Shown: positions 2,884 through 44,592 of the stretch, piece after piece | Layout: each line of letters opens with the position of its first letter | Numbering within the stretch: the stretch's first letter is position 1 | Program-made: the position numbers and the translations under genes | Notes under the pieces: model-generated | Seen by the model: the letters and a program-made list of their open reading frames with translations, nothing else | Told to the model about the DNA's origin: nothing | Databases searched by the model: none | Assembly: GCA_038225385.1 (NCBI GenBank) | Contig: JBBRRC010000005.1 | Location: forward strand, 18,743 to 82,742 | Source of the DNA: Sphingomonadales bacterium | Lineage (GTDB): Bacteria > Pseudomonadota > Alphaproteobacteria > Sphingomonadales > Sphingomonadaceae | DNA: 64,000 bases | Direction of reading: 5' to 3'

Positions 2884-3391
2884 ATGGTGGACAATGCTCG
2901 TTGGTATATGATCGTGTTCTCGTAGAGATATTTTACTGTTGAAGAAGCAGAGTCGCCGGGTTTGGCGATCTGCATCAAGCAGTGCGCGAGAGGTTAATTG
3001 TTTGCGGCGGCGATTAGCGGGCCGCGTTGTCGAACCGCCGCATAGCTTTCTCGGAAGGTGGTGAAGCATCGCGGGGTAGGATACGAAATACGCGCGACCG
3101 AATCCGATCCGAGCATTGCGGCGGTAGAGACGTATGAGCACTTCCCCGTCCCAGATGGCCGCGCGCTAAGCATGCAAAGCCAATTAAGCGGACGGTCCTC
3201 TCGCAGCGCCGCCGTCTTATCAAGTAAGCCGCGCCTGCGGCGGCAGAACCTCACCGAGATCGACGATAATATGTCTCATGGCGTCTGCTCGCAACGTTCT
3301 GCACCCCATTTCGAGATTCAGCAGATTGTCTCACCGCTGTCTGATCGAACCAATAAGAGCCGGGAGCTCACCGGAGGATGTCGGTGGACAT

Positions 3392-4681
3392 CTACGGGTT
3401 AATCGGCAGGGTCCCACTTCTCAATGCTCGATTCACGGTCACAACGAAATATAGACCCATAAAGAGCTGGGGAAACAGCGCCGCGAACGCCATGCCGACT
3501 ACGCCGTATGCGCGTACTAGAACTGGTGCAAGAACCAGAAAGGTAAGACCGGTGAAGCGGTAGATACTTGCAAGACTCCTATCACGGTGCATTGCAACCA
3601 TCACTGGACTAAGAGAGACGCAAATAACCGTGAAAAATGATGCAAACAACCAGATTGTAAATATCGTTATGCCAGCAGCGTTGTGCTGACCTGCAAAGAA
3701 CGAATAAACCGTTTCCCGCATAAAAAAGATGACCCCTAGCATTAGTGCTGAGATACCGGCGACGGAGAGCAAGTACATCTTTACCATTCGAGCAAATCCT
3801 TCGTCACCTCGTGCGAAGCGACGCACTAAGGTCGGAAAAAGCGTCTGGGCGGCGATATTGAACAAGGACACGAAAGCCTGAGATATGCGCTCGGCAATAC
3901 TGTAAAACCCAACGCTTTGTGCGGGGAGCATCACGCCGATGATTATTATCGTTCCATAGGCGTGGACAATGCCCCAAGCTGTCGCCGAAAATAATTTCCA
4001 ATTATCTCGAAGAAGTATTTTGATGTCAGCTTTCGCCGTACCGTTCGAGCGCAAAGGCAAAGATCGTCGAAATAGCATTCCTGCTGCAATCAGTGCAATC
4101 AATGCCGCGATAGCTTGCGTCATCGGAACGACATAAGTGTCTGCTGGAGAACGAATAAGCGCGAACGCGGACCCGGCAGCTAAGAAACGAGTGGTGACGA
4201 GTATTCGAGCTGCCTTGGGTACAATGAGCAGCCCTTGGAAAAGCCAAAGTGGGAAAAGGGCCGCCGTTCCCGCGGAAGCGATCGACCAGAGGTATACCAC
4301 GAAATGCTCTCGAACCTGCGGCACGACTAGCGCGGCAAGGCAAAAAACTGCTGCTATTCCTGTGAACAGAAGAGTTTTAAGCGCTGATGTAGCGATGAGG
4401 TAACGATTAAGGGCTTCAGGTTCAGAGCCATGGCTCGCTGCATAACGTGCGCCAGACTGAAGGATGCCATAGTCGATAATCACGCCGCCCGCCATTGCCA
4501 CGGCGTTCGCAACCGCAATTTGCCCCAACCCAGCAATTGTTAAGACGCGAGCGAAGTATGGAACCGTTATAATTGGTATAAGGTAAGATACGGCTTGGAT
4601 CGCCGAGAAGGCGCTGAAGTTCGATAAGTAAAGTCTAAATGGCCGGATGAATGTAGCAAGGAGCTTAAAAATCTTGGACAT
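3392..4681 (-). CDS. wzx: Wzx-type oligosaccharide flippase
   Basis: 429 aa, many TM helices, N-terminal YLIPIITVPYFARVL motif typical of the flippase family; AT-richer than flanks. Confidence 0.8.
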   Translation of the reverse strand: MSKIFKLLATFIRPFRLYLSNFSAFSAIQAVSYLIPIITVPYFARVLTIAGLGQIAVANAVAMAGGVIIDYGILQSGARYAASHGSEPEALNRYLIATSALKTLLFTGIAAVFCLAALVVPQVREHFVVYLWSIASAGTAALFPLWLFQGLLIVPKAARILVTTRFLAAGSAFALIRSPADTYVVPMTQAIAALIALIAAGMLFRRSLPLRSNGTAKADIKILLRDNWKLFSATAWGIVHAYGTIIIIGVMLPAQSVGFYSIAERISQAFVSLFNIAAQTLFPTLVRRFARGDEGFARMVKMYLLSVAGISALMLGVIFFMRETVYSFFAGQHNAAGITIFTIWLFASFFTVICVSLSPVMVAMHRDRSLASIYRFTGLTFLVLAPVLVRAYGVVGMAFAALFPQLFMGLYFVVTVNRALRSGTLPINP

Positions 4682-31389: not shown

Positions 31390-31410
31390 CGGCTGGCAGC
31401 TGACCGGCTG

Positions 31411-31426
31411 GCAGCGGACCCGCTGC
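31411..31426. terminator. Small GC hairpin between convergent gcdH and TBDR genes
   Basis: GCAGCG-GACC-CGCTGC; no clear U-tract. Confidence 0.35.
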
Positions 31427-34278
31427 TAGAGCCGCCCGCGGATGCCGAAGAAAAAGGCCCGTCCGGTATATTCGTAGAATGACGGGACGTTGGCGTAGGT
31501 GCTGTAGCGCTGCGTCGCCTGACCGAGCAGGTTCGACCCCTGAACATAGACGGTCAAACTCGGCAGGATGTCATAGGCAAGGCTCGCCGACAGTTCGTGA
31601 TATGGCCGTTCCTTGTCGACGAGAGAGCTGATGTACTGCGTCGGATTGGCGGTGAAGCGCGACTGGTATTCATACGATACCGAGGCGTTGATCCCGTGCT
31701 TTTCGTAAAAGATCTTGGCATTCGCGGAAAACGGTACGGCGCCGAACAATTCGGTGGTCTGGCCGGCACTCAGCGCCTGCGAGTGGTTGTAGGTGGCGTT
31801 CGCCTGAAAGCCGAGGCCGTTGTCGAGGAAATACTGGCCGCCCAGTTCGATACCCCACACCTTGGCGCTGTCACCATTGATGGTGACGACCTCGGTGAAG
31901 TCGAAGCTTTGCGGCGCGTTCGCGGGCTGGTTGGTCGGCACCAGCTTGAACGGTACTGAGGTCGTCGTCACGAAATTGGTGATATGCTTGTAGAACGCCG
32001 CCGCGCTCAGCGAGAGCCGCCGGTTCGGATTATATTCCAGCGAGACGTCGAGTTGGTCCGCCGATGTCGGCTTCAGGTTGGGATTGCCGGCATCGATGAT
32101 CGTCGGGGTGTTCGACTGCGCCGCCGAATAATCCTTGGCCGCCGACAATTCGCCGAACGTCGGTCGCGAGATCGCCTTCGACGCGGCCAGCCGGAGGCGC
32201 AGCGCATCGGTCAGGTCGTACTGAAAATTGGCCGACGGCAACAGGCGCAGGTAATTGCCACCGCCGACAATCGCCTGGACCGGGTTGAAGACGACGGTGG
32301 CCGACCCGGCACCGAACACGACATAGCTGGCGACACTCGCGCCGTAGCCGACCGACGATACCTTCGTGTCGACCAGACGTGCGCCGAGGTCGGCGCGCCA
32401 GCGCTCGCCCTCGAAATTATACTGGACATAGCCTGCCCAGGTCCGCTCGCTGATCGCATATGAGCCAAGCAGATCGGGCTGGACGACCTGCGTCGCGTAG
32501 CCGGTGGGATAGGGCGACAGCGTGCAGCCTGGGATCGGGTTGCCGTCGCCGTCCTTGCAGCTGTTGGGATCGGGGACGTTCGGGTTGTTCTCTGCCGCAG
32601 GGAGTGCCGCCAGATAGGCCGCAATGTCGAACGAGGGGAAGTTTCGCGGGAAATTCCCCGTCAGCGTCGGCAGGATGTTCGTGACGAGGCCGGGGCGCAC
32701 GACATCGGCGCCGATCGCGCTGAACGGGAACGGATAGCCGCAGAAGTTGCACGACGTCGTGAACTGGTTGTCGATGACATCGACCGTTTTCTTGCGGTCG
32801 GTATAGTTAACGCCGAACGTGATCGATTTGAGGACGCCGGCATCGATCGCGAATTCGCCGTCGATCTTGCCGCCCTTGGTCTTGTCGGCGATGTTCTGGC
32901 CCTGGATGCCGATATAATGGACGCGCAGATCGGCATTGCCTGCCTGGTCGAGCGTCCGGTTGGTCACCGTCCCGTCGGCATTGGGGATCGTCAGGACCAT
33001 GTCGGGAATGCCGTTGTCCCGCGTGGTGACGACGGCGCGCGAGCCCGGGATGCCGGCGACGACGAATTCGTTCTGGCCGCCGGTATCGTCGCTTGCCTTG
33101 CCGTAATAGGCATCGATCGTGAACTTCAGCCTGTCCGACGGTTTCCAGTCGATATGGCCGCCGAACTGATAGGTGATCGAATTGCGCGGTTCGTTGGTGG
33201 TCAGCACGTCGATCGTCGCGGGCTGGACCGTGTAGTTGGTCACGACCTTGTTGCTGTCGATCGTCAGGTTGTTCAGGTCCCAGCGCAAATTGCCGTCGTC
33301 GTCGAACGGCGTCAGGCCGACCGACGTCCGGTAATTCTGCTGGCTGACCTTGTAATTGCTGTAGATGCCGTCGAGCCGCAATTCGAACCGGTCCGACGGG
33401 CGCCACTGATACGCCGCCGATCCGCCCCAGCGCTCACGCTCGCCCAGCACATAGCCGACGCTGTAGAAATACGGCACGATCACGCCGCCCCTCACCTGGT
33501 CGAACCGGGGATCGTCCATGGTGATGACTTCGCGCTGGCCGTCGGCGTTGGTGACGACGTCGAACGTATTCTGGCTCGAATATTCGCCCAGATTGTCGGT
33601 CCGGAACTTGTACCGGTTATAGCTCCCTGAAATCAGGAACCCCATCGTGTCGTTCGCAAATGTCGTGCTGACGACGCCCGATGCCTTGAACCCGCCCTTT
33701 TTCGCAAAGTCGTTATACTGCCCCTCGATCGAGCCCGCCGCATGCAGCCCCTTGTGGTCGAACGGCCGCGCGGTGCGCAGGTCGATGTTGCCGCCGATGC
33801 TGCCCTCGTTCTGCGACGACTGGACGGCCTTTTGAATTTCTGCCCCGGCGATCATTTCCGACGGCAGCACGTCGAACGCGAACGCCCGGTCGGGCCCGTC
33901 GGTTGGCAGGATACGGCCGTTGAGCGTCGTGATCGCGAAGTTTTCACCGAGGCCGCGGATCGTGATGTTCTTGCCCTCGCCGCGCCCGTCACGCCCGACC
34001 GTGACTCCGGGGATGTTCGCAAGCGCTTCGGCAACATTGCGATTGGGGAATTTACCCAGTTCTTCGGCAGAGATGGCATCGACGATCGTCGTTGCCGACC
34101 GTTTGATGTCGGTTGAGCGCAGCAGGCTGCCCCGCACGCCCGTCACGATGATTTCGGAATCCGACTGGGGATCGGCTGCCTGGGGCGCGGTCTGCGCGCG
34201 TGCCGGCAGGGCGGTGGCCAGCGCGCACACTGCGGCGGTTCCCAGGATATGGATACGAACCTGACCGATGCGTCGCAT
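31426..34278 (-). CDS. TonB-dependent receptor (carbohydrate-uptake type)
   Basis: Signal peptide, TonB box EIIVTG, plug motif (NVAEALANIPGV, IRGLG), GNPNLKP, C-terminal GRAFFFGIRGRL. Confidence 0.93.
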   Translation of the reverse strand: MRRIGQVRIHILGTAAVCALATALPARAQTAPQAADPQSDSEIIVTGVRGSLLRSTDIKRSATTIVDAISAEELGKFPNRNVAEALANIPGVTVGRDGRGEGKNITIRGLGENFAITTLNGRILPTDGPDRAFAFDVLPSEMIAGAEIQKAVQSSQNEGSIGGNIDLRTARPFDHKGLHAAGSIEGQYNDFAKKGGFKASGVVSTTFANDTMGFLISGSYNRYKFRTDNLGEYSSQNTFDVVTNADGQREVITMDDPRFDQVRGGVIVPYFYSVGYVLGERERWGGSAAYQWRPSDRFELRLDGIYSNYKVSQQNYRTSVGLTPFDDDGNLRWDLNNLTIDSNKVVTNYTVQPATIDVLTTNEPRNSITYQFGGHIDWKPSDRLKFTIDAYYGKASDDTGGQNEFVVAGIPGSRAVVTTRDNGIPDMVLTIPNADGTVTNRTLDQAGNADLRVHYIGIQGQNIADKTKGGKIDGEFAIDAGVLKSITFGVNYTDRKKTVDVIDNQFTTSCNFCGYPFPFSAIGADVVRPGLVTNILPTLTGNFPRNFPSFDIAAYLAALPAAENNPNVPDPNSCKDGDGNPIPGCTLSPYPTGYATQVVQPDLLGSYAISERTWAGYVQYNFEGERWRADLGARLVDTKVSSVGYGASVASYVVFGAGSATVVFNPVQAIVGGGNYLRLLPSANFQYDLTDALRLRLAASKAISRPTFGELSAAKDYSAAQSNTPTIIDAGNPNLKPTSADQLDVSLEYNPNRRLSLSAAAFYKHITNFVTTTSVPFKLVPTNQPANAPQSFDFTEVVTINGDSAKVWGIELGGQYFLDNGLGFQANATYNHSQALSAGQTTELFGAVPFSANAKIFYEKHGINASVSYEYQSRFTANPTQYISSLVDKERPYHELSASLAYDILPSLTVYVQGSNLLGQATQRYSTYANVPSFYEYTGRAFFFGIRGRL

Positions 34279-34314
34279 GCGCTTCCCCTTGATGCTGATC
34301 CCTCGTCCCGGCCC

Positions 34315-34400
34315 AATATGTTTCGGTTAGCCGATCCTGATTGCGATTCGGTAGCACGGGTTTTTGTACAGTGCCATACCGAAAAGAAGCGAAACTTTCG
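34315..34400. promoter_or_regulatory. Divergent TBDR/agaR control region with GAAA/TTTC repeats
   Basis: CGAAAAGAAGCGAAACTTTCG near 34380-34400 and TTTCG near 34321; resembles AgaR/DeoR direct-repeat operators (inference). Confidence 0.35.
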
Positions 34401-34453
34401 GCCGGCATTGAACCGGCCCGCGATGTTTGTTAGGCGCGCCGGGCAATCAATCA

Positions 34454-35245
34454 ATGAGGAAGCGGATGTCGGCGATGCGCGACACGAGCGGGCGACGCCA
34501 GCAGATCAGCACGATGGTGAAGGCGCAGGGCAGCGTGCAGGTCGCGCCGCTGGCCGAGCAATTCGGGGTGTCGATGCAGACGATCCGCAAGGACCTGCAT
34601 TATCTGAGCGAGCGGGGCATCGCCTCGCGAGCCTATGGCGGCGCGATCGCTTCGGAAGTGGTCGGCGCGCTGGTCGAACCGCCGGTCGATGCAAAGCGCA
34701 ACGTCAACCTCGAACAAAAAGAGCGGATCGGCCGCCTCGCCGCGGCGATGGTGCGTCCCGGTGACTCGATCGTCCTCGATTCGGGCACGACGACGCTGCA
34801 GATCGCGCGCTTCCTTGCGGATGACGAGGGGACGACGGTCGTGACGAACGATTTCGGCGTCCTCGCGATGCTGGCGCAGAAAAGCCGCATCAAGATCGTC
34901 ATGCTGGGTGGGGAGCTGCGCCGCCGCAACATGGCCTTCTACGGCGGGCAAACGGTCGACGCGCTTGATGATTTGCACGTCGACAAGCTGTTCCTCGGTG
35001 TCGATGGGTTCCACCTCGACCGCGGCATTACCACGCATCACGAGCCCGAAGCGCTGCTCAACCGCAAGATGGCAAAGGCTGCGCAATCGGTGATCGCGGT
35101 GACCGACAGCGCGAAATTCGGCCGCGTCTGCCTGCACCGGATCGTCGACATCGCCGACCTCGACGCGCTGGTCACCGATACCGGCGCGCCCGACTATATC
35201 CGCGCCGCGAGTGCTACCGCGGGGTTTGCCCTGCACCTCGCCTGA
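34454..35245 (+). CDS. agaR: DeoR/GlpR-family regulator (AgaR-like)
   Basis: VSMQTIRKDL HTH, RAYGGA, LDSGTTT and DKLFLGVDG motifs; context of agaS/agaZ genes. Confidence 0.8.
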   Translation: MRKRMSAMRDTSGRRQQISTMVKAQGSVQVAPLAEQFGVSMQTIRKDLHYLSERGIASRAYGGAIASEVVGALVEPPVDAKRNVNLEQKERIGRLAAAMVRPGDSIVLDSGTTTLQIARFLADDEGTTVVTNDFGVLAMLAQKSRIKIVMLGGELRRRNMAFYGGQTVDALDDLHVDKLFLGVDGFHLDRGITTHHEPEALLNRKMAKAAQSVIAVTDSAKFGRVCLHRIVDIADLDALVTDTGAPDYIRAASATAGFALHLA

Positions 35246-35264
35246 GGTCAGCGCCTGAGGTCAG
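35239..35264. repeat. 13-bp tandem direct repeat at a convergent gene junction
   Basis: CGCCTGAGGTCAG x2, containing the stop codons of both convergent genes. Confidence 0.85.
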
Positions 35265-36370
35265 CGCTTCTTCAAAAAGACCCGTCGGGCATTGCCATAA
35301 TAGATTTTGTCGATGACCGTCCGGGGCAGCGCCAGCCCTGGCACATCCGCATTGATCGCATCGATGCGCTGCGTGGTGTCGGTCGCGAGGTACGCCCAGT
35401 CCGACCGCCAGAAATCATCCGCCTCCTTGGCAAAATCGGCGCTCGTCGATGGCGGGTTCTGTGCGCGCTCGCTTGCCGACGGCGGGTTTTGTGTCAGGTC
35501 GGATCCGTACAGGAGGCGATCCTGGTATTTGACGAAAAACGCCCGCACCTTGGCGGGATCGCGGACCGACTGATACTGGACCTGAGTCATCCGCGCGGCC
35601 AGGTCCACCGTGGCATTCGGGTATCGGTCGAGGAACGCGGCGAGCACGTCGACGCTCCACTCGAGGCTTGCCATATGGGCGCCGACGAAGCTCAATCCGG
35701 GGTGCCGGCTCACAAACGCGTCGCGATGCGCCATCAGGGTTTCGTAGCCCGGCTGCTCGGGATGCAGATACATGTGGTATTCGGGGTGGTCCCTGAAATA
35801 GCTGCGGTCGTTGTCGGTCGTCATCTGGTCGAGCGGCAGCCAGCAGTTCTTGGGCTCCGCCTGATGCGCGATCAGGGGCACGTGCGCCTGTTCGATATGC
35901 GCCATCACCTCATCGAAACGCGGATCGTCGAGGAAAATCTGGTTTCCGCTGGCGTCCTTCTCGACCATGCCGATGTTCTTCCAGACCTTAACGCCCAGTG
36001 CCCCGTGGGCGAACGCGGTATCCAGCGCCGCATTGGTTGCCTGCGTCCAGCCGGGCGACGCAAACCCCTTCATCGTGAAGGTCGTGGCGAAATGGAAATG
36101 CTTCGGATCCGCTGCCTTGAGCGCCTGCGCCACGGCCGACTGCGTCTTCAGATCGGGAAAGTCGGGATAGTCGACGTTGATCGACATCAGCTCGAACCCG
36201 TCCTTGCGGGCGATGGCCAGGAACTGCGGCCCGTTGACGTTGGCATGCACATGCGCGTCGAACTTGCGGACATGAGCAAAGTCCGCGACCCGGTAGGTCG
36301 ACGACGACGTCGCCATCGCCGCGCTGCCGAGGGCCGCGACGAAAATCAGGGCTACAGATCTCATCCGCAT
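35261..36370 (-). CDS. Exported amidohydrolase (Amidohydro_2-like)
   Basis: Signal peptide MRMRSVALIFVAALGSAAMA; FDAHVH, IAHQAEP, GAHMAS and LLYGSD metal motifs. Confidence 0.85.
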   Translation of the reverse strand: MRMRSVALIFVAALGSAAMATSSSTYRVADFAHVRKFDAHVHANVNGPQFLAIARKDGFELMSINVDYPDFPDLKTQSAVAQALKAADPKHFHFATTFTMKGFASPGWTQATNAALDTAFAHGALGVKVWKNIGMVEKDASGNQIFLDDPRFDEVMAHIEQAHVPLIAHQAEPKNCWLPLDQMTTDNDRSYFRDHPEYHMYLHPEQPGYETLMAHRDAFVSRHPGLSFVGAHMASLEWSVDVLAAFLDRYPNATVDLAARMTQVQYQSVRDPAKVRAFFVKYQDRLLYGSDLTQNPPSASERAQNPPSTSADFAKEADDFWRSDWAYLATDTTQRIDAINADVPGLALPRTVIDKIYYGNARRVFLKKR

Positions 36371-36385
36371 GGTCACGCTCCCGTA

Positions 36386-36411
36386 GAAACAAACAAAACG
36401 AAACTCAAAAC
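36386..36411. promoter_or_regulatory. (G/A)AAAC repeat array between divergent amidohydrolase and GH36 genes
   Basis: GAAACAAACAAAACGAAACTCAAAAC; AT-rich patch in a GC-rich context, candidate AgaR operator. Confidence 0.4.
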
Positions 36412-36483
36412 TTCCCAACCGCGCCTTTTTGATTGCATGGTTTATCACCCCCGTGCAATGCCTCTGGCGCGAAGGGAGTCTGC

Positions 36484-38583
36484 ATGAACAAGGATCGCGG
36501 CAACTCGGCTATCTGCATGCGCCGCCGTGCGCTGCTGCAACTGCTCGGTGGATCGGCCTGCATCCCGATGCTCGCCACCCGCGCTGCCGCCGCAACGCTT
36601 CGCCCGGTCGTCGCGGTGAAAACCGCCGGCAAGGGACTCTCGATCGATTTCGACGGTGCGCTGCGCAGCAGGGTGTCACTCGACGGCGTCGCGCTGACCG
36701 GATTCGACGCGGGCGAGGCGCTCCTGCTCGATCACGGCGCGGCGGTCGACCGCTTCGTCATGGTGGATCATCGGCGCACGACCGTGGAGGATGCGCATGG
36801 TCGCGGCGACCGCCACACGTTGCGCGGCCTGGCGTCCGCTGGCGTCGAAAAGGTCGTTTATCTGACCTATTACGATCGTCACCCGGGGTTTGTCATCGTG
36901 CAGGCCGAGTTTGTTAACCGGGGCACGGTGCCGCTCGCGGTATCGGGATGGCGCGCCGCTGCCCACACCCTTTTGCCGGCACCGGGCGGCAGCTGGTCCT
37001 ACTCGGGCGCCAGCTATGAAAATCGCCGCGACTGGGTGCAGCCGGTGAAGCCGGGCTTCGACCAGCGCAATTTCATGGGCATGAACGCATCGGACTATGG
37101 CGGCGGCACCCCCGTTGCCGACGTCTGGCACCGGCGCGCGGGCATTGCCGTCGGCCATGTCGAGGTCACGCCAAAGCTCGTGTCGCTGCCGATCCGGGAC
37201 GTTTCCGGGGCGACCAGTCTTGCGATCGAAAGCGATACGGGCATGACGCTGGCACCCGGCGAACGGCTGGCGACCCACGATTGCTTCATCGCTGCCCACC
37301 GGGGCGATCACTTTGCCGCGCTTGACGGCTACCGCAAGCTGATGGCCGAGCGCGGTCTGGCTGCCCCGGCGACCCCGGCGACGAGCTACGAGCCGATCTG
37401 GTGCGCCTGGGGTTATGAGCGCAATTTCACCACCGAACAGATCATCGCGACCCTGCCCAAGGCCAAGTCGCTGGGTCTCGACTGGGCGGTGCTCGATGAC
37501 GGCTGGCAGACCAGCGAAGGCGACTGGAAGGTCGATCGCACAAAGTTTCCGCGCGGTGATGACGATATGAAAGCGTTTGCCGAGGCCGTCCTCGCGCAGG
37601 GCATGAAACCCCGGCTATGGTATTCGCCACTCGCCGTCGATCCGGGCACCGACCTGCTTCATGACCACGTCGACATGTTGTTGCTCGACAAGAGCGGCGC
37701 GGTCCAGAACGTCAGCTGGTGGAACGCCTTTACCCTGTGCCCCGCCTATCCCCCGACGGTCGATTATTACAAGAAGCAGGTGGCGCGGATCATCGGCGAC
37801 TGGGGCTACAAAGGGCTGAAGCTCGACGGCCAGCATCTGAACGGCGTGGCACCCTGCTACAACCCCGCGCACAATCATGCCCGGCCCGAGGAATCGGTCG
37901 AAAAACTGCAGGACTTCTGGAAGGCGCTCTACGACACCGCCATCGCGATCGACCCGGCAACGGTCGTCGAAATCTGTCCGTGCGGCACGGCGTTCGCCTT
38001 TCACAACATTCCGGCGATAAACCAGACCCCCGCCTCCGACCCTGAATCATCGTGGCAGGTGCGGCTGAAGGGCAAGACGATGAAGGCGCTGATGGGGCCA
38101 TCGGCCCCCTTTGCGGGCGATCATGTCGAACTGAGCGATCATGGTGACGATTTCGCCTCGACCTTTGGCATCGGCGGCATTCTGTCGACCAAATTCACCT
38201 GGCCGGCCGACACCACCCGTCCCAGCGGCGACAGGCTCCCACCGGGCGGTTATGTTCTGACGCCTGCCAAGGAAGCGCTGTGGCGCAAGTGGATCGCGCT
38301 TTACCGGGAACAGATGCTGCCGACGGGCAAATATCTCGGTGGGCTGTACGATATCGGTTTCGACAAGCCGGAGGCACATGCGGTCGAAAAAGACGGCACC
38401 ATGCACTATGCGTTTTTTGCGGACCGCTGGAGCGGCCCGCTCGAACTGCGCGGGCTGGGTGCCGGGCGCTTCGCCCTGAGAGACGGCTTTACCGGGCGGC
38501 CGCTGGGCCATGTGACCGCGGCCACGTCGCGCATCCCTGCTGCATTTGAGCGGTTCCTGCTGATCGAGGCGACCCCGGCATGA
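36484..38583 (+). CDS. GH36 alpha-galactosidase / alpha-N-acetylgalactosaminidase-like, Tat-exported
   Basis: Tat-like RRRALL signal; WCAWGY, VLDDGWQ and GLKLDG motifs of GH36/GH27 clan D. Confidence 0.85.
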   Translation: MNKDRGNSAICMRRRALLQLLGGSACIPMLATRAAAATLRPVVAVKTAGKGLSIDFDGALRSRVSLDGVALTGFDAGEALLLDHGAAVDRFVMVDHRRTTVEDAHGRGDRHTLRGLASAGVEKVVYLTYYDRHPGFVIVQAEFVNRGTVPLAVSGWRAAAHTLLPAPGGSWSYSGASYENRRDWVQPVKPGFDQRNFMGMNASDYGGGTPVADVWHRRAGIAVGHVEVTPKLVSLPIRDVSGATSLAIESDTGMTLAPGERLATHDCFIAAHRGDHFAALDGYRKLMAERGLAAPATPATSYEPIWCAWGYERNFTTEQIIATLPKAKSLGLDWAVLDDGWQTSEGDWKVDRTKFPRGDDDMKAFAEAVLAQGMKPRLWYSPLAVDPGTDLLHDHVDMLLLDKSGAVQNVSWWNAFTLCPAYPPTVDYYKKQVARIIGDWGYKGLKLDGQHLNGVAPCYNPAHNHARPEESVEKLQDFWKALYDTAIAIDPATVVEICPCGTAFAFHNIPAINQTPASDPESSWQVRLKGKTMKALMGPSAPFAGDHVELSDHGDDFASTFGIGGILSTKFTWPADTTRPSGDRLPPGGYVLTPAKEALWRKWIALYREQMLPTGKYLGGLYDIGFDKPEAHAVEKDGTMHYAFFADRWSGPLELRGLGAGRFALRDGFTGRPLGHVTAATSRIPAAFERFLLIEATPA

Positions 38584-39512
38584 CCGGTTCGCCCATTGCC
38601 GCGCCGCACCGCGGCTGGCTGTTCAATGCGCTGACCACGGTTGCCCTCTGGGGCGTCTGGGGCGCATTTTCGGGCCTCTCGCCACAGCACGGCTTTCCCG
38701 AAACGCTGGTTTACTGTGTCTGGTCGCTGACGATGATCCCGCCCGCGCTCATCGTGCTGAAACTGGCGAACTGGCGGCTGGACCGTGATCCGGTCGCGAT
38801 CGGTTACGGCCTGATCATTGGTTTACTGGGTGCCGGCGGCCAGATGGTCCTGTTCTACGCGGTGACCAAAGGGCCGCCCTATCTGATCTTTCCCATCATC
38901 TCGCTGTCGCCGGTGGTGACGATCGCCATGTCGTTCGCGCTGCTTGGGGAACGCACGACCCGGCTGGGGGCGGCCGGCATCGTCCTCGCGCTGCTGGCGC
39001 TCCCCACGTTCGACTTCTCCTTTGGCGGGGACGGGGCCGGGCAGGGGGTCGGCTGGTTCATCCTCGCGCTGATCGTCATGCTGTGCTGGGGCGTGCAGGC
39101 CTATTTCATGAAAGCGGCCAACGCCGTCATGAGCGGAGAGAGCATCTTTTTCTTCATGGCGCTGACCGGCCTGATGCTCGCCCCTGTTGCCTGGCTGATG
39201 ACCGATTTTTCAAGGCCGGTGAATATGGGCATTGACGGACCTGTCCTCGCGGCGGGCATTCAGGTGCTGAACGCCATCGGGGCCCTGACGCTGGTCTTCG
39301 CCTTTCGCTATGGGAAGGCGATTGTCGTCGCGCCGCTGACCAATGCGGGCGCCCCGCTCGTCACCGCACTGATTTCGCTCGCCGTCATCGGCATCGTGCC
39401 AGGCGAACTGAAGATCGTCGGCCTCGTCCTCGCGACGGTCGCGTCCATGCTCCTGGCCCTCGAACCAGAGGCGGTCAGCGAAGACGCCCCGGCAGGGGCT
39501 GCGCTCACATGA
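38580..39512 (+). CDS. DMT/EamA-family transporter
   Basis: About 10 TM helices in two repeats; PIISLSPVVT and APLTNAGAPLVT; coupled to GH36. Confidence 0.85.
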   Translation: MTGSPIAAPHRGWLFNALTTVALWGVWGAFSGLSPQHGFPETLVYCVWSLTMIPPALIVLKLANWRLDRDPVAIGYGLIIGLLGAGGQMVLFYAVTKGPPYLIFPIISLSPVVTIAMSFALLGERTTRLGAAGIVLALLALPTFDFSFGGDGAGQGVGWFILALIVMLCWGVQAYFMKAANAVMSGESIFFFMALTGLMLAPVAWLMTDFSRPVNMGIDGPVLAAGIQVLNAIGALTLVFAFRYGKAIVVAPLTNAGAPLVTALISLAVIGIVPGELKIVGLVLATVASMLLALEPEAVSEDAPAGAALT

Positions 39513-40792
39513 ATGCGTTGCTCGATTTGGTCACCCGCCACAAAGCAGGCGAACGCGTGGGCATCACCTCGGTGTGCTCGGCCCATCCGATCGTTCTCGA
39601 GGCCGTTCTCCGGCACGCACGCGACATGGGTTCACCGCTTGCCCTGATCGAGGCGACCTCCAACCAGGTCAATCAGGACGGCGGCTATACCGGCATGGTG
39701 CCGTCGGCCTTCCGCGATTTTGTCTATTCGATTGCCGATCGGGTCGATTTTCCGCGCGACCGCATCGCGCTCGGCGGGGATCATCTCGGGCCCAATGCCT
39801 GGAGTGCGATGCCCGCCGAGGAGGCGATGGCCAGGGCAGCGGTGATGATCGATCACTATGTCCGCGCGGGCTTTCGCAAGATTCACCTCGACTGTTCGAT
39901 GTCGTGCGCCGACGATCCGACGCCGCTGCCCGAAGAGGTGGTTGCCACGCGGGCGGCCAGCCTCTGCGCCGTCGCCGAGGCGGCGTACCGGGATGCGGGC
40001 GGAGAAGCCCCGCTATACGTGATCGGCACGGAAGTGCCCGTGCCGGGGGGGGCGGCCGAAGATGTTGCGACGCTTCAGGTGACGACGCCCGACGCAGCGC
40101 GATCGACAATCGACCTGCATGAGCGCGTGTTTCTCGGCGCTGGTCTAGGGGACGCGTGGCAGCGCGTGATTGCAACCGTCGTGCAACCCGGCGTTGAATT
40201 CGATCATCACAAGGTCGTCGATTACGATCCCGCCGCTGCCCGGGCACTCAGCGCGAGCATCGGCGCCGTACCACGGATCGTGTTCGAGGCGCACTCGACC
40301 GATTATCAGACGCCGGCATCGCTCGCTGCACTCGTCGCGGATCACTTTGCCATTCTGAAAGTGGGGCCGGGCGTTACCTTTGCCCTTCGCGAAGCCCTTT
40401 GGGCACTCGATGCGATCGAGAGCGAACTCTTCCCCGCCGCGAGCAGTGCCGGTTTCCGCAGCGTCGTTCTTGCCCGCATGAAGGCCGAACCGCAGTATTG
40501 GGCGAAATATTATGAGACGACCGGCGACGCGCTCGACATCGACCTCCAGTACAGCCTGAGCGACCGCGTCCGCTATTACTGGCCGGATGCCGCGATCGTC
40601 GCGGCGCAGGAAACCCTGTTCGACAATCTTACCCGCAAGCCACCTCCGCCCGCGCTGATCAGTCAGTATCTGCCGCTTTCCTATGCGGCGGTCCGCGCGG
40701 GCGAAGCGGCCGCGACTCCAAAGGGCCTCGTCATGGCGCATATAACTTCGGTCCTGGAGGCGTATCGGAAGGCCTGCACTGCCCATGGCTGA
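39509..40792 (+). CDS. agaZ: KbaZ/GatZ/AgaZ family protein (tagatose-6-phosphate 4-epimerase-like)
   Basis: SVCSAHP, IEATSNQVNQDGGYTG, LGGDHLGP, YVIGTEVPVPGG, FEAHSTDYQ and SLSDRVRYYW motifs. Confidence 0.92.
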   Translation: MNALLDLVTRHKAGERVGITSVCSAHPIVLEAVLRHARDMGSPLALIEATSNQVNQDGGYTGMVPSAFRDFVYSIADRVDFPRDRIALGGDHLGPNAWSAMPAEEAMARAAVMIDHYVRAGFRKIHLDCSMSCADDPTPLPEEVVATRAASLCAVAEAAYRDAGGEAPLYVIGTEVPVPGGAAEDVATLQVTTPDAARSTIDLHERVFLGAGLGDAWQRVIATVVQPGVEFDHHKVVDYDPAAARALSASIGAVPRIVFEAHSTDYQTPASLAALVADHFAILKVGPGVTFALREALWALDAIESELFPAASSAGFRSVVLARMKAEPQYWAKYYETTGDALDIDLQYSLSDRVRYYWPDAAIVAAQETLFDNLTRKPPPPALISQYLPLSYAAVRAGEAAATPKGLVMAHITSVLEAYRKACTAHG

Positions 40793-41933
40793 GCTTGGTC
40801 TGGACGATAATCTGCTCGATGGGCGCGGCGGCCGCTGGACCGCGCGCGAAATCGTGCAACAGCCGGAAATGCTGCGTGCGACCCAACGGCTGCTGGCGGC
40901 GCAGGCCGAGGGGTTGCGCACATTCCTGACGCCATTCACAGCCGACCCCGGCGCGCGGATCATATTGACCGGCGCCGGTACGTCGTCGTTCATCGGCGAT
41001 TGCCTCGCCCCCTGGCTCGACCACTGCCTTGCGGCGCGGGTAGAGGCGATCGCCACGACCGACATCGTCAGCGCGCCTCACCTCTATCTTGATAGACGGT
41101 CACCGACCCTGATCGTCTCGTTCGGGCGGTCGGGAAACAGTCCCGAAAGTGCGGCGACGGTGAACCTCGCCAACGACCTCGTGCCCGGCGTCCGGCACCT
41201 CGTCATCACCTGCAACGCCGACGGTGCGCTGGCCCGCAACGCCAGGCCCGGCGACTATGTCATTCAATTGCCTGAACTCACCCATGATCGCGGGTTTGCG
41301 ATGACGTCGAGTTTCACATCGATGACCTATGCGGCACTCGCGGCACTGACGGGCGTTGACGCAATGGCCGACAGGATCGAACCGATTGCCAGTGCGGTGG
41401 AAGCCGCGATCGCGGCGTCGGTGCCCCTGGCTGCCGAACTGGCCGGCGCGGACTATGCGCGCGTTGCCTACCTGGGCAGCCATATTTTCAGGGGCCTCGC
41501 GCGGGAGGCGGCCCTGAAACTGATGGAACTTACCGACGGCGGCATCGTCGCGACCTCCGACTCGCCGCTGGGCTTCCGGCATGGTCCCAAGACGATCGTC
41601 ACCGACCGCACGCTCGTCGTCGTCTTCCTGTCCAACGACCCGCTGACCCGGCGGTACGATCTGGATCTCTTTGCCGAACTTCAGCGCGATGGCCGCGCCG
41701 CGCTTGTCATTGCGATTTCCGCCGGAGGAGCGTCACCGCCGGCTGGACTGCTCGTCGACGGGCTGGCCCGGGCAACCGATATCGACCTGCTGTTTCCCTA
41801 TATCGTTCTGCCACAGGTGTTTGCCCTGCATGCGTCGTTCGCGGTCGGCCTGACGCCCGACAACCCGAACGCGTCGGGTGTCGTCAACCGCGTCGTTCAG
41901 GGCGTTGCTATCCACTGCCTGACGGACGCGTGA
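40785..41933 (+). CDS. agaS: SIS-domain galactosamine-6-phosphate deaminase/isomerase
   Basis: TAREIVQQP, LTGAGTS, SFGRSGNSPES, FAMTSSFT and GFRHGPK motifs. Confidence 0.9.
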   Translation: MAELGLDDNLLDGRGGRWTAREIVQQPEMLRATQRLLAAQAEGLRTFLTPFTADPGARIILTGAGTSSFIGDCLAPWLDHCLAARVEAIATTDIVSAPHLYLDRRSPTLIVSFGRSGNSPESAATVNLANDLVPGVRHLVITCNADGALARNARPGDYVIQLPELTHDRGFAMTSSFTSMTYAALAALTGVDAMADRIEPIASAVEAAIAASVPLAAELAGADYARVAYLGSHIFRGLAREAALKLMELTDGGIVATSDSPLGFRHGPKTIVTDRTLVVVFLSNDPLTRRYDLDLFAELQRDGRAALVIAISAGGASPPAGLLVDGLARATDIDLLFPYIVLPQVFALHASFAVGLTPDNPNASGVVNRVVQGVAIHCLTDA

Positions 41934-42874
41934 GCCGCGAGGGCTTCATTGGCGTCGATGGCGGTGGGACGAAGACCCATTTCATCCTTATCGACCGCGC
42001 TGGCGAGGTGCTCGCCGAACATACCGGCGGCACCACCTACCATCTTCAGGTCGGCATCGAGGGCGTAAAGCAGGCGCTGGCAGAAGGCTTGAGCGCGGTC
42101 ACGCAATCGGCTTCGGGAGCCATCGACCGTGTCGCCCACGCCTTCATCGGCTTGCCCGCCTTTGGTGAGGACGCAGCCGTCGATCCTGTGCTTCAGGAAC
42201 TGCCGGCCGCGATTCTTGGCCATCGTCGCTACACCTGCGGAAACGACATGATCTGCGGCTGGGCGGGCTCGCTCGGCGGCGCAGATGGCATCAACATCGT
42301 CGCCGGTACCGGTTCGATCGGTTATGGCGAGCGCCAGGGACGCGCGGCCCGCGCCGGCGGCTGGGGCGAAGTTTTCAGCGACGAGGGCTCGGGCTACTGG
42401 CTGGCAATCCAGGGGCTGAACGCCTTTTCCAGGGCCAGTGACGGCCGCTCGGATAAAGGGCTGCTTTACCAGTCCTTTCGCACCTATCTTGGTCTTGCCG
42501 ACGATATCGATGTCTGCAGCAGGATCATGGGACCGGACGCCATGTCGCGCCAGGAAATCGCCGCGCTGAGTCCTCTGGTGACCGAGGCGGCGCTGGCCGG
42601 CGACCTGGCCGCACTGGACATCTGCAACCGCGCCGGGGCGGAGCTTGCCGCGATCGCGGACGCTATCCGGAAAGCATCGGGCTTTCTTCCCGACGAAGAT
42701 GTGCTCGTGTCCTATTCGGGCGGCGTTCTCGAAAACTCGAGCACGATACTCGCCTCGTTCCGCCAGAACCTCGACCGGAGTTTCGGCCGCTATAAGTTAT
42801 GCACACCGAAGTTTTCGCCAGCCTATGGCGCTGCTTTATACGCTATGCGATGTCCGGCTGCTGTCGCGACCTGA
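41930..42874 (+). CDS. BadF/BadG/BcrA/BcrD-type N-acetylhexosamine/hexosamine kinase (AgaK candidate)
   Basis: GVDGGGTKT, AGTGSIGYG and GGWGEVFSDEGSGYW motifs. Confidence 0.85.
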   Translation: MSREGFIGVDGGGTKTHFILIDRAGEVLAEHTGGTTYHLQVGIEGVKQALAEGLSAVTQSASGAIDRVAHAFIGLPAFGEDAAVDPVLQELPAAILGHRRYTCGNDMICGWAGSLGGADGINIVAGTGSIGYGERQGRAARAGGWGEVFSDEGSGYWLAIQGLNAFSRASDGRSDKGLLYQSFRTYLGLADDIDVCSRIMGPDAMSRQEIAALSPLVTEAALAGDLAALDICNRAGAELAAIADAIRKASGFLPDEDVLVSYSGGVLENSSTILASFRQNLDRSFGRYKLCTPKFSPAYGAALYAMRCPAAVAT

Positions 42875-42901
42875 TATGGCGCCATTGCGCGGGCGCCCTT
42901 G

Positions 42902-43051
42902 TCAACCTTGCTGACGCGCCTTCACGAATACAGATGCAATGACCTGGTTCACCCGCTCGACGCTGCGCCGGGCAGCTTCTTCGGTACTCGGAGCGCGCCG
43001 CTCGCGCTTCTCGAGGCTTGGTGCTGCTTGATCGAATACGCTGTGTGGCAT
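42902..43051 (-). CDS. 49-aa peptide downstream of the proteasome-like gene (not in ORF track)
   Basis: Manual translation MPHSVFDQAAPSLEKRERRAPSTEEAARRSVERVNQVIASVFVKARQQG*; GGGAAG SD-like sequence; ATG 9 nt after the upstream stop. Confidence 0.55.
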   Translation of the reverse strand: MPHSVFDQAAPSLEKRERRAPSTEEAARRSVERVNQVIASVFVKARQQG

Positions 43052-43060
43052 CAGCTTCCC

Positions 43061-44398
43061 CTACTGTGGTTCGAGTTTGTTAGCGAACTGCTCGCCGCCT
43101 TGGTTCCCACCATATCGCCGGAAGAAATATCGAGGGTTAAGGCTTGCATCAAAATAGTGTTTTCTCTTCACCCATACAAAACCCTCTGCGCGGGTTATCA
43201 CGGCGACATCGATGGGACCACCCACTGACTCTGCACCCGCTGAAAATTTGCGCTTCAAAGAGGTGATGTGCACCAGGCTCTCAGCTAACGCTGCGAGCTC
43301 CTGCTTCGGCATCGATCGTATCATGTCTGAAAATTGGCTTTTGAGACGGTTTATATGGTCAGGCACGACCTCTCTCTGAAACTCAGCGAGGATGGAATCC
43401 ACGGCAGGAGAAAGCGGGGCGCGGACGGCATCATCAAATGCCTCGAGGTGCTGATCGAGATTTGATTTCAGTGAAGCAAGCGCCCCGGAAAAATAGGTTG
43501 TGCAAAGGTCGAGAAACTCTTTGTCCAATCCATACATGAATCGATCGACCATCTCTTGCTGCGCGAAAGGGAACGCGGCGGCGTCAGGTACGAGTTGCCG
43601 ATCAACATCAAACTTTAATTGCCGATCGTGCTTAAGCTTGCCGGCAATGGTCCCGTACACCTCCACGCTAAATAGCGAAGGAAAGATTTCGTCGCGGCCA
43701 AACCCAGCGAATACCATGCCGGTCAGCATATTGCGCTGCCATTCCTTCAGAAGGCTCCACGCCAATATCCGGGTGATCCGGTCACCTCGCTCAACCGACA
43801 AGTCGTCACCTTCAAAGATGGCTCCGATGTACTCCCTGATCGCATCTCCATGATGAGCCAACACGTCTTCCTCACCCAAGCCTTCTGCCCAAGCCGGCAA
43901 CGGGAGGCCCGCCAACGTCACGATCTGCTCGTCGAGCACACTCAGTGCGTGCGCTTCGACCGCTTCGAACAAATCATCGATCGACGAGTACTTTTCAGTT
44001 GTAGCCGTTCTAAAAAAATCCTCACTAACCTCTCTCAGCTGCTCTTTGATAGCAGTCGCGCGGCCGTGAATGAGCCCCCAGACGTTGTTCCTTATTGTTA
44101 TTTTCGGCGTTTCGAACTGTTCGACATGCTCGAGAAAAGCATCGGCAAAATCGAAGACAGTAGCAAATTGACCAGGGCAATGCCGATCTCTATACATCTT
44201 CACGATGGTCTCGACCGGCACACCACATAGCTCAGGACTGTTATAAACCATAACGCCTATCGGGTCGTACGTGGTAGCTTCAAATATTTTGTCGGCTGAA
44301 TTATAGACCTTTGGCCCGTCGGCATTTCCGATCGTAACCGCACTGTCTGCAGCTAGGGTTACCGCCAGCTTGTTCAAGACGGCTATTTCCGCTGTCAC
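43061..44398 (-). CDS. Proteasome beta-subunit-like Ntn-hydrolase with large insertion
   Basis: M-T1...LAAD17S..T, ADK36IF, MVFAGFG and SVGGPIDVAVITRAEGF motifs; AAGGGGG RBS before the GTG start; AT-richer than the core. Confidence 0.75.
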   Translation of the reverse strand: MTAEIAVLNKLAVTLAADSAVTIGNADGPKVYNSADKIFEATTYDPIGVMVYNSPELCGVPVETIVKMYRDRHCPGQFATVFDFADAFLEHVEQFETPKITIRNNVWGLIHGRATAIKEQLREVSEDFFRTATTEKYSSIDDLFEAVEAHALSVLDEQIVTLAGLPLPAWAEGLGEEDVLAHHGDAIREYIGAIFEGDDLSVERGDRITRILAWSLLKEWQRNMLTGMVFAGFGRDEIFPSLFSVEVYGTIAGKLKHDRQLKFDVDRQLVPDAAAFPFAQQEMVDRFMYGLDKEFLDLCTTYFSGALASLKSNLDQHLEAFDDAVRAPLSPAVDSILAEFQREVVPDHINRLKSQFSDMIRSMPKQELAALAESLVHITSLKRKFSAGAESVGGPIDVAVITRAEGFVWVKRKHYFDASLNPRYFFRRYGGNQGGEQFANKLEPQ

Positions 44399-44466
44399 GC
44401 TGCCCCCTTGTATTCCGTATTCATTCTGTACTAGCGGGCCGCAACCGCGCTAAGCCATTGAAACGA

Positions 44467-44543
44467 TGGCGCACCGGAAGGGATTCGAACCCCTGACCCC
44501 TGCCTTCGGAGGGCAGTGCTCTATCCAGCTGAGCTACCGGTGC
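44467..44543 (-). tRNA. tRNA-Arg(CCG)
   Basis: Reverse complement GCACCGGTAGCTCAGCTGGATAGAGCACTGCCCTCCGAAGGCAGGGGTCAGGGGTTCGAATCCCTTCCGGTGCGCCA; anticodon stem CTGCC/GGCAG with CCG; TTCGAAT T-loop; encoded CCA. Confidence 0.97.
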
Positions 44544-44592
44544 CTGGCCAGGACGCGCCCTTAGCAAGCGCGTCCCCGCTTCGCCAGCCCTA

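Follow-up and report, generated by a model that had tools for sequence, protein, structure and literature searches.

Proteasome-fold enzymes are usually seen as housekeeping barrels. The gene described here is predicted to code for an enzyme of this fold, and lies in a stretch of 64,000 nucleotides from a Sphingomonadales bacterium (GenBank assembly GCA_038225385.1, contig JBBRRC010000005.1, positions 18,743 to 82,742 of the forward strand). The whole of this stretch is called the window below, and positions are counted from its first letter unless another contig or locus is named. The protein has 445 residues and is predicted to be a hydrolase of the N-terminal nucleophile (Ntn) type, with Thr1 as its catalytic residue. 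Together with a 49-residue open reading frame (ORF) directly behind it, the gene makes up a small cassette, and the best explanation of this cassette is that it is horizontally acquired and self-contained, with these two genes as its content.

The family to which the protein belongs has been met before, from two directions. In a catalogue of 22 new proteasome homologues, Fuchs, Alva and Lupas (2021; PMC8665760) included the groups named PMI, for 'Proteasome homolog with Multiple Insertions'. PMI-3 and PMI-4 are propeptide-free and carry long insertions after the helices H1/H2 and between H3/H4, and it was argued that insertions at both of these sites should hinder the assembly of rings and double rings. 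PMI-4 is the largest of the PMI groups, found in most bacterial phyla, in Euryarchaeota and in phages; PMI-3 has the same insertion sites, is rare, and is not reported from phages (PMC8665760).

The second description is that of Rrp (SP_1145, 'Ribosome rescue protease'), a 44.8 kDa protein of Streptococcus pneumoniae TIGR4 that is encoded on a phage-like element and resembles proteasome beta and Anbu 'with additional extended domains' (bioRxiv 10.64898/2026.08.10.744006). Rrp cuts the N-terminal extension of bL27, with relaxed specificity and at several sites. It is present in purified ribosomes, elutes in early fractions in size-exclusion chromatography, and markedly slows the growth of Escherichia coli when expressed alone. 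Hydrolysis was shown in that work, and a Thr1 mutant is not reported there (bioRxiv 10.64898/2026.08.10.744006).

The window gene is a new member of this catalogued family, and so does not represent an unknown one. The initial annotation, made from the sequence alone, had called the protein uncharacterised; this description has to be given up in view of the match to PMI-4 (2021), of the phage protein family phrog_5990, and of the pneumococcal Rrp, which was shown to be a protease in the 2026 preprint.

Active site, fold and family of the protease

The ORF that was annotated at this position is present and intact, with GTG as its start codon and a Shine-Dalgarno-like AAGGGGG run at 44403-44409. 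Its translation starts with M-T-A-E and contains all of the motifs quoted earlier, these being MTAEIAVLNKLAVTLAADSAVT, ADKIF, GMVFAGFG...PSLFSV and SVGGPIDVAVITRAEGFVWV.

Conservation was counted in a MAFFT alignment of 363 diverse family members. T2, which would be Thr1 once the Met is removed, is conserved in 354/354 aligned relatives, D18 (the equivalent of Asp17) in 362 of 363, and K37 (the equivalent of Lys33) in all 363, as is D397 of the GGPID motif. In a smaller set of 27 diverse members, the invariant residues are T2, D18, S19, K30, K37 and the C-terminal V-G-G-P-I-D block. That the triad is under strong purifying selection is well supported for the gene family.

When the family profile was compared with the sequences in the PDB, the top match was the 20S beta subunit of Thermoplasma acidophilum (E = 0.056), carried by ESVGGPIDVAVISRAEGFV aligned with SGGMIDVAVITRKDGYV. 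A further stretch at the N-terminus, which is sub-significant alone, places T2 on Thr1, D18 on Glu17 and K37 on Lys33. Because of this placement, the assignment of a Thr1/Asp17/Lys33-type triad made in the initial annotation looks correct, with each of the residues conserved in more than 99% of the 363 relatives; the three-residue offset of the lysine is due to a short insertion. A phmmer search of the PDB with the single protease sequence gave only noise, and an NCBIfam scan of the protease found nothing.

The family is large. More than 4000 proteins came out of a word-indexed search, and in an exhaustive search the count was 4981 clusters at 50% identity, of which 2017 had E < 1e-30. The members are nearly all 415-455 residues long, are spread over many bacterial phyla and archaea as well as 123 viral contigs of IMG/VR, and are without exception named 'hypothetical'. 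The phage family phrog_5990 ('unknown function') matches the window protease over its full length with E = 9.8e-87, and the window protease is almost certainly a member of this family.

A model was built with AlphaFold2 from a 27-sequence alignment, and has a mean pLDDT (predicted local distance difference test) of 81.6 and a pTM (predicted template modelling score) of 0.75. In order from the N-terminus, it has six strands (residues 4-53), six helices (62-218), four strands (226-277), four helices (281-386) and two strands (396-411). The topology of the model is that of a proteasome beta subunit with extra helices at two places. A Foldseek comparison with the PDB, which had been suggested as a check, had nothing but Anbu and proteasome subunits, alpha or beta, in its top 50 matches, with probabilities of 0.92-1.0 and target-normalised template modelling (TM) scores of 0.34-0.57, about 0.5 for most. 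Among viral structures, a fold search of BFVD gave one clear match only, a 219-residue phage 'proteasome beta'.

The initial annotation had described a propeptide-less proteasome fold whose extra length is a single helical insertion. The fold and the helical nature of the extra length were borne out, while the number was not: there are two insertions, one in the H1/H2 layer and one between H3 and H4. The block of the first consists of helices 62-73, 81-94, 99-131, 140-163, 176-194 and 202-218, as assigned by DSSP. The region of the second has helices 281-289, 293-317, 323-361 and 365-386, against two helices in the canonical fold. In sequence, no part of the family is more variable than the insertions, whose column entropies are 3.1-3.5 bits (about 3.2 bits for insertion 2) against 0.6-1.8 bits in the core. 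Their lengths are conserved in the 363 relatives, at 157-196 residues for the segment M50-G227, which holds insertion 1, and 45-82 residues for the insertion 2 segment.

The pneumococcal proteins provide the connection to Rrp. A Streptococcus satellite protein matches the window protein with E = 1e-49, and a pneumococcal member of 396 residues (P0396) matches it over its full length with 26% identity and E = 1e-44. The pneumococcal 396-residue members have computed masses of 44.76-44.88 kDa, to be compared with the 44.8 kDa given in the preprint, and they end an int-repressor-DnaD-DnaI...HTH (helix-turn-helix) element, followed by an ORF of 58 residues. From the mass and the layout of the element, and not from an accession, the pneumococcal proteins are very probably SP_1145 itself. 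The sequence comparison thus makes a strong link, by which the window family would include the Rrp family. It is quite likely that the window protein is an active protease.

It is worth adding that the commonest pneumococcal allele (P0395, in 236 contigs) carries Asp instead of the second Gly in the near-invariant V-G-G-P-V-D motif, a position at which 358 of 363 members have Gly.

The small partner ORF

The protease gene had been described initially as solitary. It is not: an ORF of 49 residues follows 9 nt downstream (Table 1), preceded by GGGAAG at 43055-43060, so that both ORFs have Shine-Dalgarno-like sequences before them. The two ORFs appear to be translationally linked.

A small ORF in this position is general in the family. 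It was counted if it lies on the same strand, has 35-100 residues, and starts within the range from 40 nt upstream to 45 nt downstream of the stop codon of the preceding gene. By this measure a small ORF follows 118 of the 143 family genes whose loci had downstream room (83%), compared with 126 of 381 controls (33%), the controls being other genes of at least 300 residues in the same loci, which makes an odds ratio of 9.6 for loci that are not phylogenetically independent. The survey for a conserved small downstream ORF that had been proposed in the initial annotation therefore gave a positive answer.

Orthologues of the window partner sit 3' of the protease gene in all nine of the close relatives examined. 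In nine aligned sequences, from the window and eight relatives, F6, A27 and F42 are invariant, and the layout is an N-terminal x-F-D/N-Q motif, a variable linker and then S-V-E-R-V...V-F..A-K/R. The partner evolves fast, with a rate of nonsynonymous substitution (dN) about twice that of the protease; its ratio of nonsynonymous to synonymous substitution (dN/dS) is below 0.5 and its frame is open, these figures being rough, with the synonymous sites saturated. Across the family the small proteins are too divergent to be aligned. Many of them have an aromatic motif (E-F-E-K-K-Y-F-P, E-W-Q-K-K-F-N-P or D-F-F), followed by a helix. Among those that are annotated are 'hypothetical proteins' of 58 and 55 residues, in a Providencia phage and a Streptococcus satellite. 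There is no conserved third gene: at 68 cellular loci, the 114 nearest neighbours match 111 Pfam families, none of them more than twice.

On this sequence evidence a functional link between the protease and its partner is likely. The partner micro-ORF is mentioned neither in PMC8665760 nor in bioRxiv 10.64898/2026.08.10.744006.

In the window, and also at three related loci (L002, L199 and L202), the partner is in the frame of the protease, with one or two stop codons in between (in the window a TAG, within 43052-43063). Read-through of the stop codon there would yield a fusion protein. The in-frame layout occurs at four of nine distinct close-clade loci, where one in three is expected by chance; the idea that it is meaningful was rejected, and the shared frame is probably due to chance.

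Mobility and genomic setting

In other genomes the cassette is carried by recognisable mobile DNA. In an E. coli prophage and in Providencia phage PSTRCR_117lys it occupies the slot between Q and the lysis genes, the E. coli prophage allele (WP_000123148.1, with a 49-residue ORF) being present in 9 of 5426 complete genomes. It is found at the far end of Streptococcus satellites, between a tRNA-Leu gene and an integrase gene in Sphingobium, and in other cases beside integrase and AlpA genes or after the gene for the large terminase. That the family moves on mobile DNA, as a pair with its small partner, is well supported.

The cassette protease is single-copy in its own genome, and of 60 further relatives just two carry a family member, in both cases a distant version with 33-37% identity. 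In one congener (G017, contig C387:4302-5602; loci L191 and L192), a distant member matches in two separate frames, to query residues 1-88 and 126-436, and may be a disrupted copy. A tRNA gene lies within 1 kb in only 5 of 68 cellular loci, which rules out adjacency to a tRNA as a hallmark of the family. A jackhmmer search for tyrosine recombinases in the loci gave 4 of 68; this was judged too insensitive and was not used.

Table 1. Features of the cassette and its surroundings in the window.
Feature	Position	Strand	Basis and remarks
Protease gene, 445 residues; proteasome-fold Thr1 Ntn hydrolase of the PMI-4 / Rrp / phrog_5990 family (predicted)	43061..44398	-	ORF list; stop codon included
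Insertion 1, residues 62-218; six-helix block where the canonical fold has H1/H2 only (predicted)	~43745..44215	-	DSSP of model
Insertion 2, residues 293-361; extra helices between H3 and H4 (predicted)	~43316..43522	-	Model
Partner ORF, 49 residues (MPHSVFDQ...SVERVNQVIASVFVKARQQG)	42902..43051	-	Starts 9 nt past the protease stop, in the same frame
tRNA-Arg (CCG)	44467-44543	-	ARAGORN; same strand as the protease gene, 68 nt upstream of it
Low-GC two-gene islet, ~1.55 kb	42900..44466		GC profile; free of integrase and of repeats of the tRNA 3' end

The positions of the cassette components are collected in Table 1. The locus had been described as AT-richer than its surroundings and adjacent to a tRNA gene, and both observations hold: the guanine-plus-cytosine (GC) profile gives 0.51-0.55 over 43000-44499, compared with 0.63-0.69 in both flanks, and the tRNA-Arg gene is 68 nt away. 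When the 3' end of the tRNA-Arg was searched for elsewhere, only the tRNA itself matched. Scans for a sigma-70-like promoter and an intrinsic terminator found neither and, like folding of the 3' end, were uninformative.

By BLAST comparison with four congeners, synteny starts at the 3' end of the tRNA-Arg (~44449-44467) and runs rightwards only. For three congeners, the match to the window does not extend beyond about 31.4 kb, so that a strain-specific stretch of about 13-15 kb abuts the tRNA-Arg, with the low-GC cassette as its tRNA-proximal edge. The tRNA-Arg flank is an insertion hot spot in the genus.

The neighbours on the left are genes for a melibiase-like hydrolase, an EamA transporter, GatZ/KbaZ, a SIS protein and a BadF/BadG-type kinase, the last of these being missing from seven congeners. 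On the right are genes for a DUF6491 protein and endonuclease III. The sugar genes, from the melibiase-like to the BadF/BadG kinase gene (36433-42874), are of normal GC content, and look like an acquired sugar-catabolism island that is separate from the cassette.

Some further observations concern the same region. The strain-specific block next to the tRNA-Arg (about 31400-44466) was found in none of the congeners that were checked. On this side of the tRNA-Arg, congener G005 (L196 2410-4329) has a recombinase-like fragment and an IS6-like transposase, and congener G018 (L194, about 3000-4000) has DNA with a GC content of 0.44-0.53. Between the DUF6491 gene and the tRNA-Arg there is a GC-rich hairpin, GGACGCGC...GCGCGTCC, at 44555-44590 on the minus strand, which looks like the terminator of the upstream gene.

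Possible role, and comparison with known systems

Taken as a whole, the locus is best explained as an acquired cassette of a protease and its partner with a role in conflict, a reading for and against which the scales are about level. The proposed mechanism would run as follows. Methionine aminopeptidase would remove Met1 and expose Thr1, which would act with Asp17 (D18) and Lys33 (K37) in the manner of the 20S beta subunit. The two helical insertions, hypervariable in sequence and conserved in length, are predicted to form an extra domain, or cap, on the conserved sandwich; this cap domain probably blocks the classical heptameric barrel and gates or selects substrates. The fast-evolving partner of about 50 residues, with its N-terminal Phe motif and C-terminal amphipathic helix, would bind the protease and restrain or direct it, like an antitoxin or a pseudo-substrate. 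We infer such a restraint because Rrp is toxic when expressed without its neighbour, and because the partner has an antitoxin-like build of short motif, disordered linker and amphipathic helix.

The role would then be that of a toxin-antitoxin-like or phage-exclusion module on prophages, satellites and islets, and not that of a housekeeping protease, which is a less attractive function here because the genome already has HslV and Anbu. Phage defence, which the initial annotation had raised, is plausible from the contexts in which the family is found, and a role in conflict or defence, considered on its own, falls a little short of an even balance. A broader suggestion can be made only tentatively, namely that protease and partner together make up a mobile conflict module, so far unrecognised and pan-prokaryotic, that serves in abortive infection, phage exclusion or addiction. 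Such a module would have a non-barrel Thr1 protease as its effector, held in check by its own partner; infection or loss of the partner would free the protease to cut ribosome-associated or phage proteins, and the hypervariable helical cap would set the specificity for the target or the trigger. A search of the literature for defence or toxin-antitoxin roles of proteasome homologues, or for work citing the 2021 catalogue, found nothing further.

A number of results weigh against the interpretation as an acquired proteasome-fold conflict cassette. The Pfam model for the proteasome, PF00227, scores the window protein at 12.8 bits (E = 0.095), below the gathering cut-off of 22.4, the family being too divergent for this model. 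The Foldseek E-values are modest, at about 1e-3 to 2e-2, as is to be expected with half of the query being insertion. The islet has no integrase, and the repeat search found no att-like repeat and no bounding direct repeats. About 17% of the family genes have no small downstream ORF by the same measure as above. Docking of the partner was probed with AlphaFold2 models of the read-through fusion (with TAG read as Gln) and of three related fusions. Judged by pLDDT only, the fusion model gives no sign of docking, the N-terminal 22 residues of the partner having pLDDT below 50 and its helix about 70. No defence model in PADLOC-DB 2.0.0 matches the window protein or its E. coli, Providencia and Streptococcus homologues. 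The immediate neighbours in cellular genomes are mostly ordinary genes, with only a few matches to restriction-modification or candidate-defence genes, counted with no control set, so that the defence-type neighbours are only suggestive. Finally, Rrp is expressed and active in growing pneumococci, where its deletion brings a slight growth defect and no benefit (bioRxiv 10.64898/2026.08.10.744006), data that a constitutive protease explains no less well than a latent toxin.

This last point leads to the main rival, which is the proposal of the Rrp authors: a general quality-control or ribosome-associated protease, constitutively active, that clears aberrant or unprocessed proteins, with the small ORF as an adaptor or irrelevant. 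It draws on the activity of Rrp in lysates of growing cells, its presence in ribosomes, its relaxed specificity and its slight deletion defect, and on the many cellular copies that lie between housekeeping genes. We consider it unlikely for the family as found here. Family members occur in so few of the relatives (2 of the other 60); the gene is of low GC content in a variable tRNA flank, and the family is carried by prophages and satellites; the genome has its HslV and Anbu already; and expression of Rrp alone is toxic in E. coli. In addition, the named substrate of Rrp is absent. The bL27 of this genome begins MAHKKAGGS, with no N-terminal extension, and Prp (PF04327) was looked for in the genome and not found; with neither of these, ribosome rescue cannot be the function here.

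A second proposal, to which we likewise give a low probability, is that the cassette serves the mobile element, by counter-defence, by interference with helper or competitor phages, or by control of lysogeny, and that the copy in the window is a stranded remnant. Several of the locations described above are accessory slots of phages (between Q and lysis, at satellite ends, next to integrase or terminase), and here the cassette is free of integrase and att repeats although it abuts a tRNA gene. Against this, both ORFs are intact in the window, and the triad is kept in more than 99% of members across cellular genomes, which argues for selection by the host as well; moreover, such accessory slots more often hold genes that are expressed from the prophage state.

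Much less probable is a sequence-specific transpeptidase or ligase similar to Connectase, which would act on the N-terminal motif of the partner. The idea was part of the initial annotation, and can appeal to Connectase as proof that the fold can ligate and to the invariant Phe in the short N-terminal motif of the partner; however, Rrp hydrolyses its substrates, at several sites, and the model does not have the hallmarks of Connectase. Equally improbable is a relic of horizontal transfer without a function, not expressed and not under selection in this strain, which would agree with the lack of a sigma-70-like promoter or intrinsic terminator in the scans and is contradicted by two open frames, the retention of all family-invariant residues, and a Shine-Dalgarno-like sequence before each ORF.

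For the preferred reading of an acquired protease and partner cassette, the wider significance lies in the extent of the family, which comprises some 5000 clusters (at 50% identity), is spread over bacteria, archaea, phages and phage satellites, and moves as a unit of two genes. The one member that has been studied came to light by chance, as the back-up of a step in ribosomal processing that is missing in most of the family's hosts, this one included. The conserved micro-partner provides a direct handle on the function, and would also account for the difficulty of expressing the protease on its own. Should the pair turn out to be a toxin-antitoxin or defence system built on a protease, it would represent a new enzymatic logic for prokaryotic immunity; if not, the family is still an unexplored branch of proteasome evolution.

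It remains to compare the window protein with the known systems, beginning with the more distant ones. Connectase resembles it as a proteasome-fold enzyme that is probably not a barrel. Connectase is without H1/H2, and a lid of two helices lies between its S3 and S4 (PMC8665760), whereas the model has H1/H2, has no two-helix insert between S3 and S4, and has its insertions elsewhere; the name Connectase-like is therefore best dropped.

HslV is likewise a Thr1 Ntn protease from which the Met is removed. The window protein has no hslU neighbour and is not a compact protein of about 180 residues. The HslV of the same genome has 188 residues, lies on another contig (C3:182886-183398, minus strand; locus L204) and scores 94.7 bits on PF00227, for which the window protein has the 12.8 bits given above. 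Anbu is among the top Foldseek matches (5NYJ, 5NYW), and shares the Met-Thr start and the lack of a propeptide. The window gene has no ATP-grasp/transglutaminase operon, and the true Anbu is again on another contig (C11; locus L205 799-1962, plus strand), with an internal start MTYCVGLLV..., after a transglutaminase-like gene at 390-1193 on the plus strand; Anbu is thus a third proteasome-fold gene in this genome, besides HslV and the cassette protease. With sugar-catabolism and repair genes as its neighbours and the real HslV and Anbu elsewhere, the protein is neither of the two, as had been supposed initially.

The best structural and profile match is the 20S beta subunit (Thermoplasma acidophilum, PDB 1PMA and related), with the same register of the triad and the same GGxIDVAVI strand. 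In contrast to it, the window protein is twice as large, has two helical insertions, and has no alpha-subunit partner. Assembly into a ring is doubtful, and with it the earlier description as self-compartmentalising, given that insertions at both sites are argued to hinder rings (PMC8665760).

With Rrp the window protein shares the N-terminal MTAEI...DSAVT, the C-terminal GGP(I/V)DV, a small ORF behind the gene, and carriage of the family by mobile elements; it differs in that no more than 26-28% of the residues are identical and in that the streptococcal proteins have the shorter insertions.

The likeness to PMI-4 is the most complete. Both have a proteasome core with Thr1/Asp17/Lys33, no propeptide, and insertions after H1/H2 and between H3/H4, and both are large families found in bacterial phyla, Euryarchaeota and phages. 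The PMI-4 paper is silent on the partner micro-ORF and on the mobility of the cassette (PMC8665760). The assignment is one of architecture and distribution, the comparison being with the published descriptions and not with the representatives HDY66466.1 and OGZ26396.1, and on every point testable here the window family fits PMI-4.

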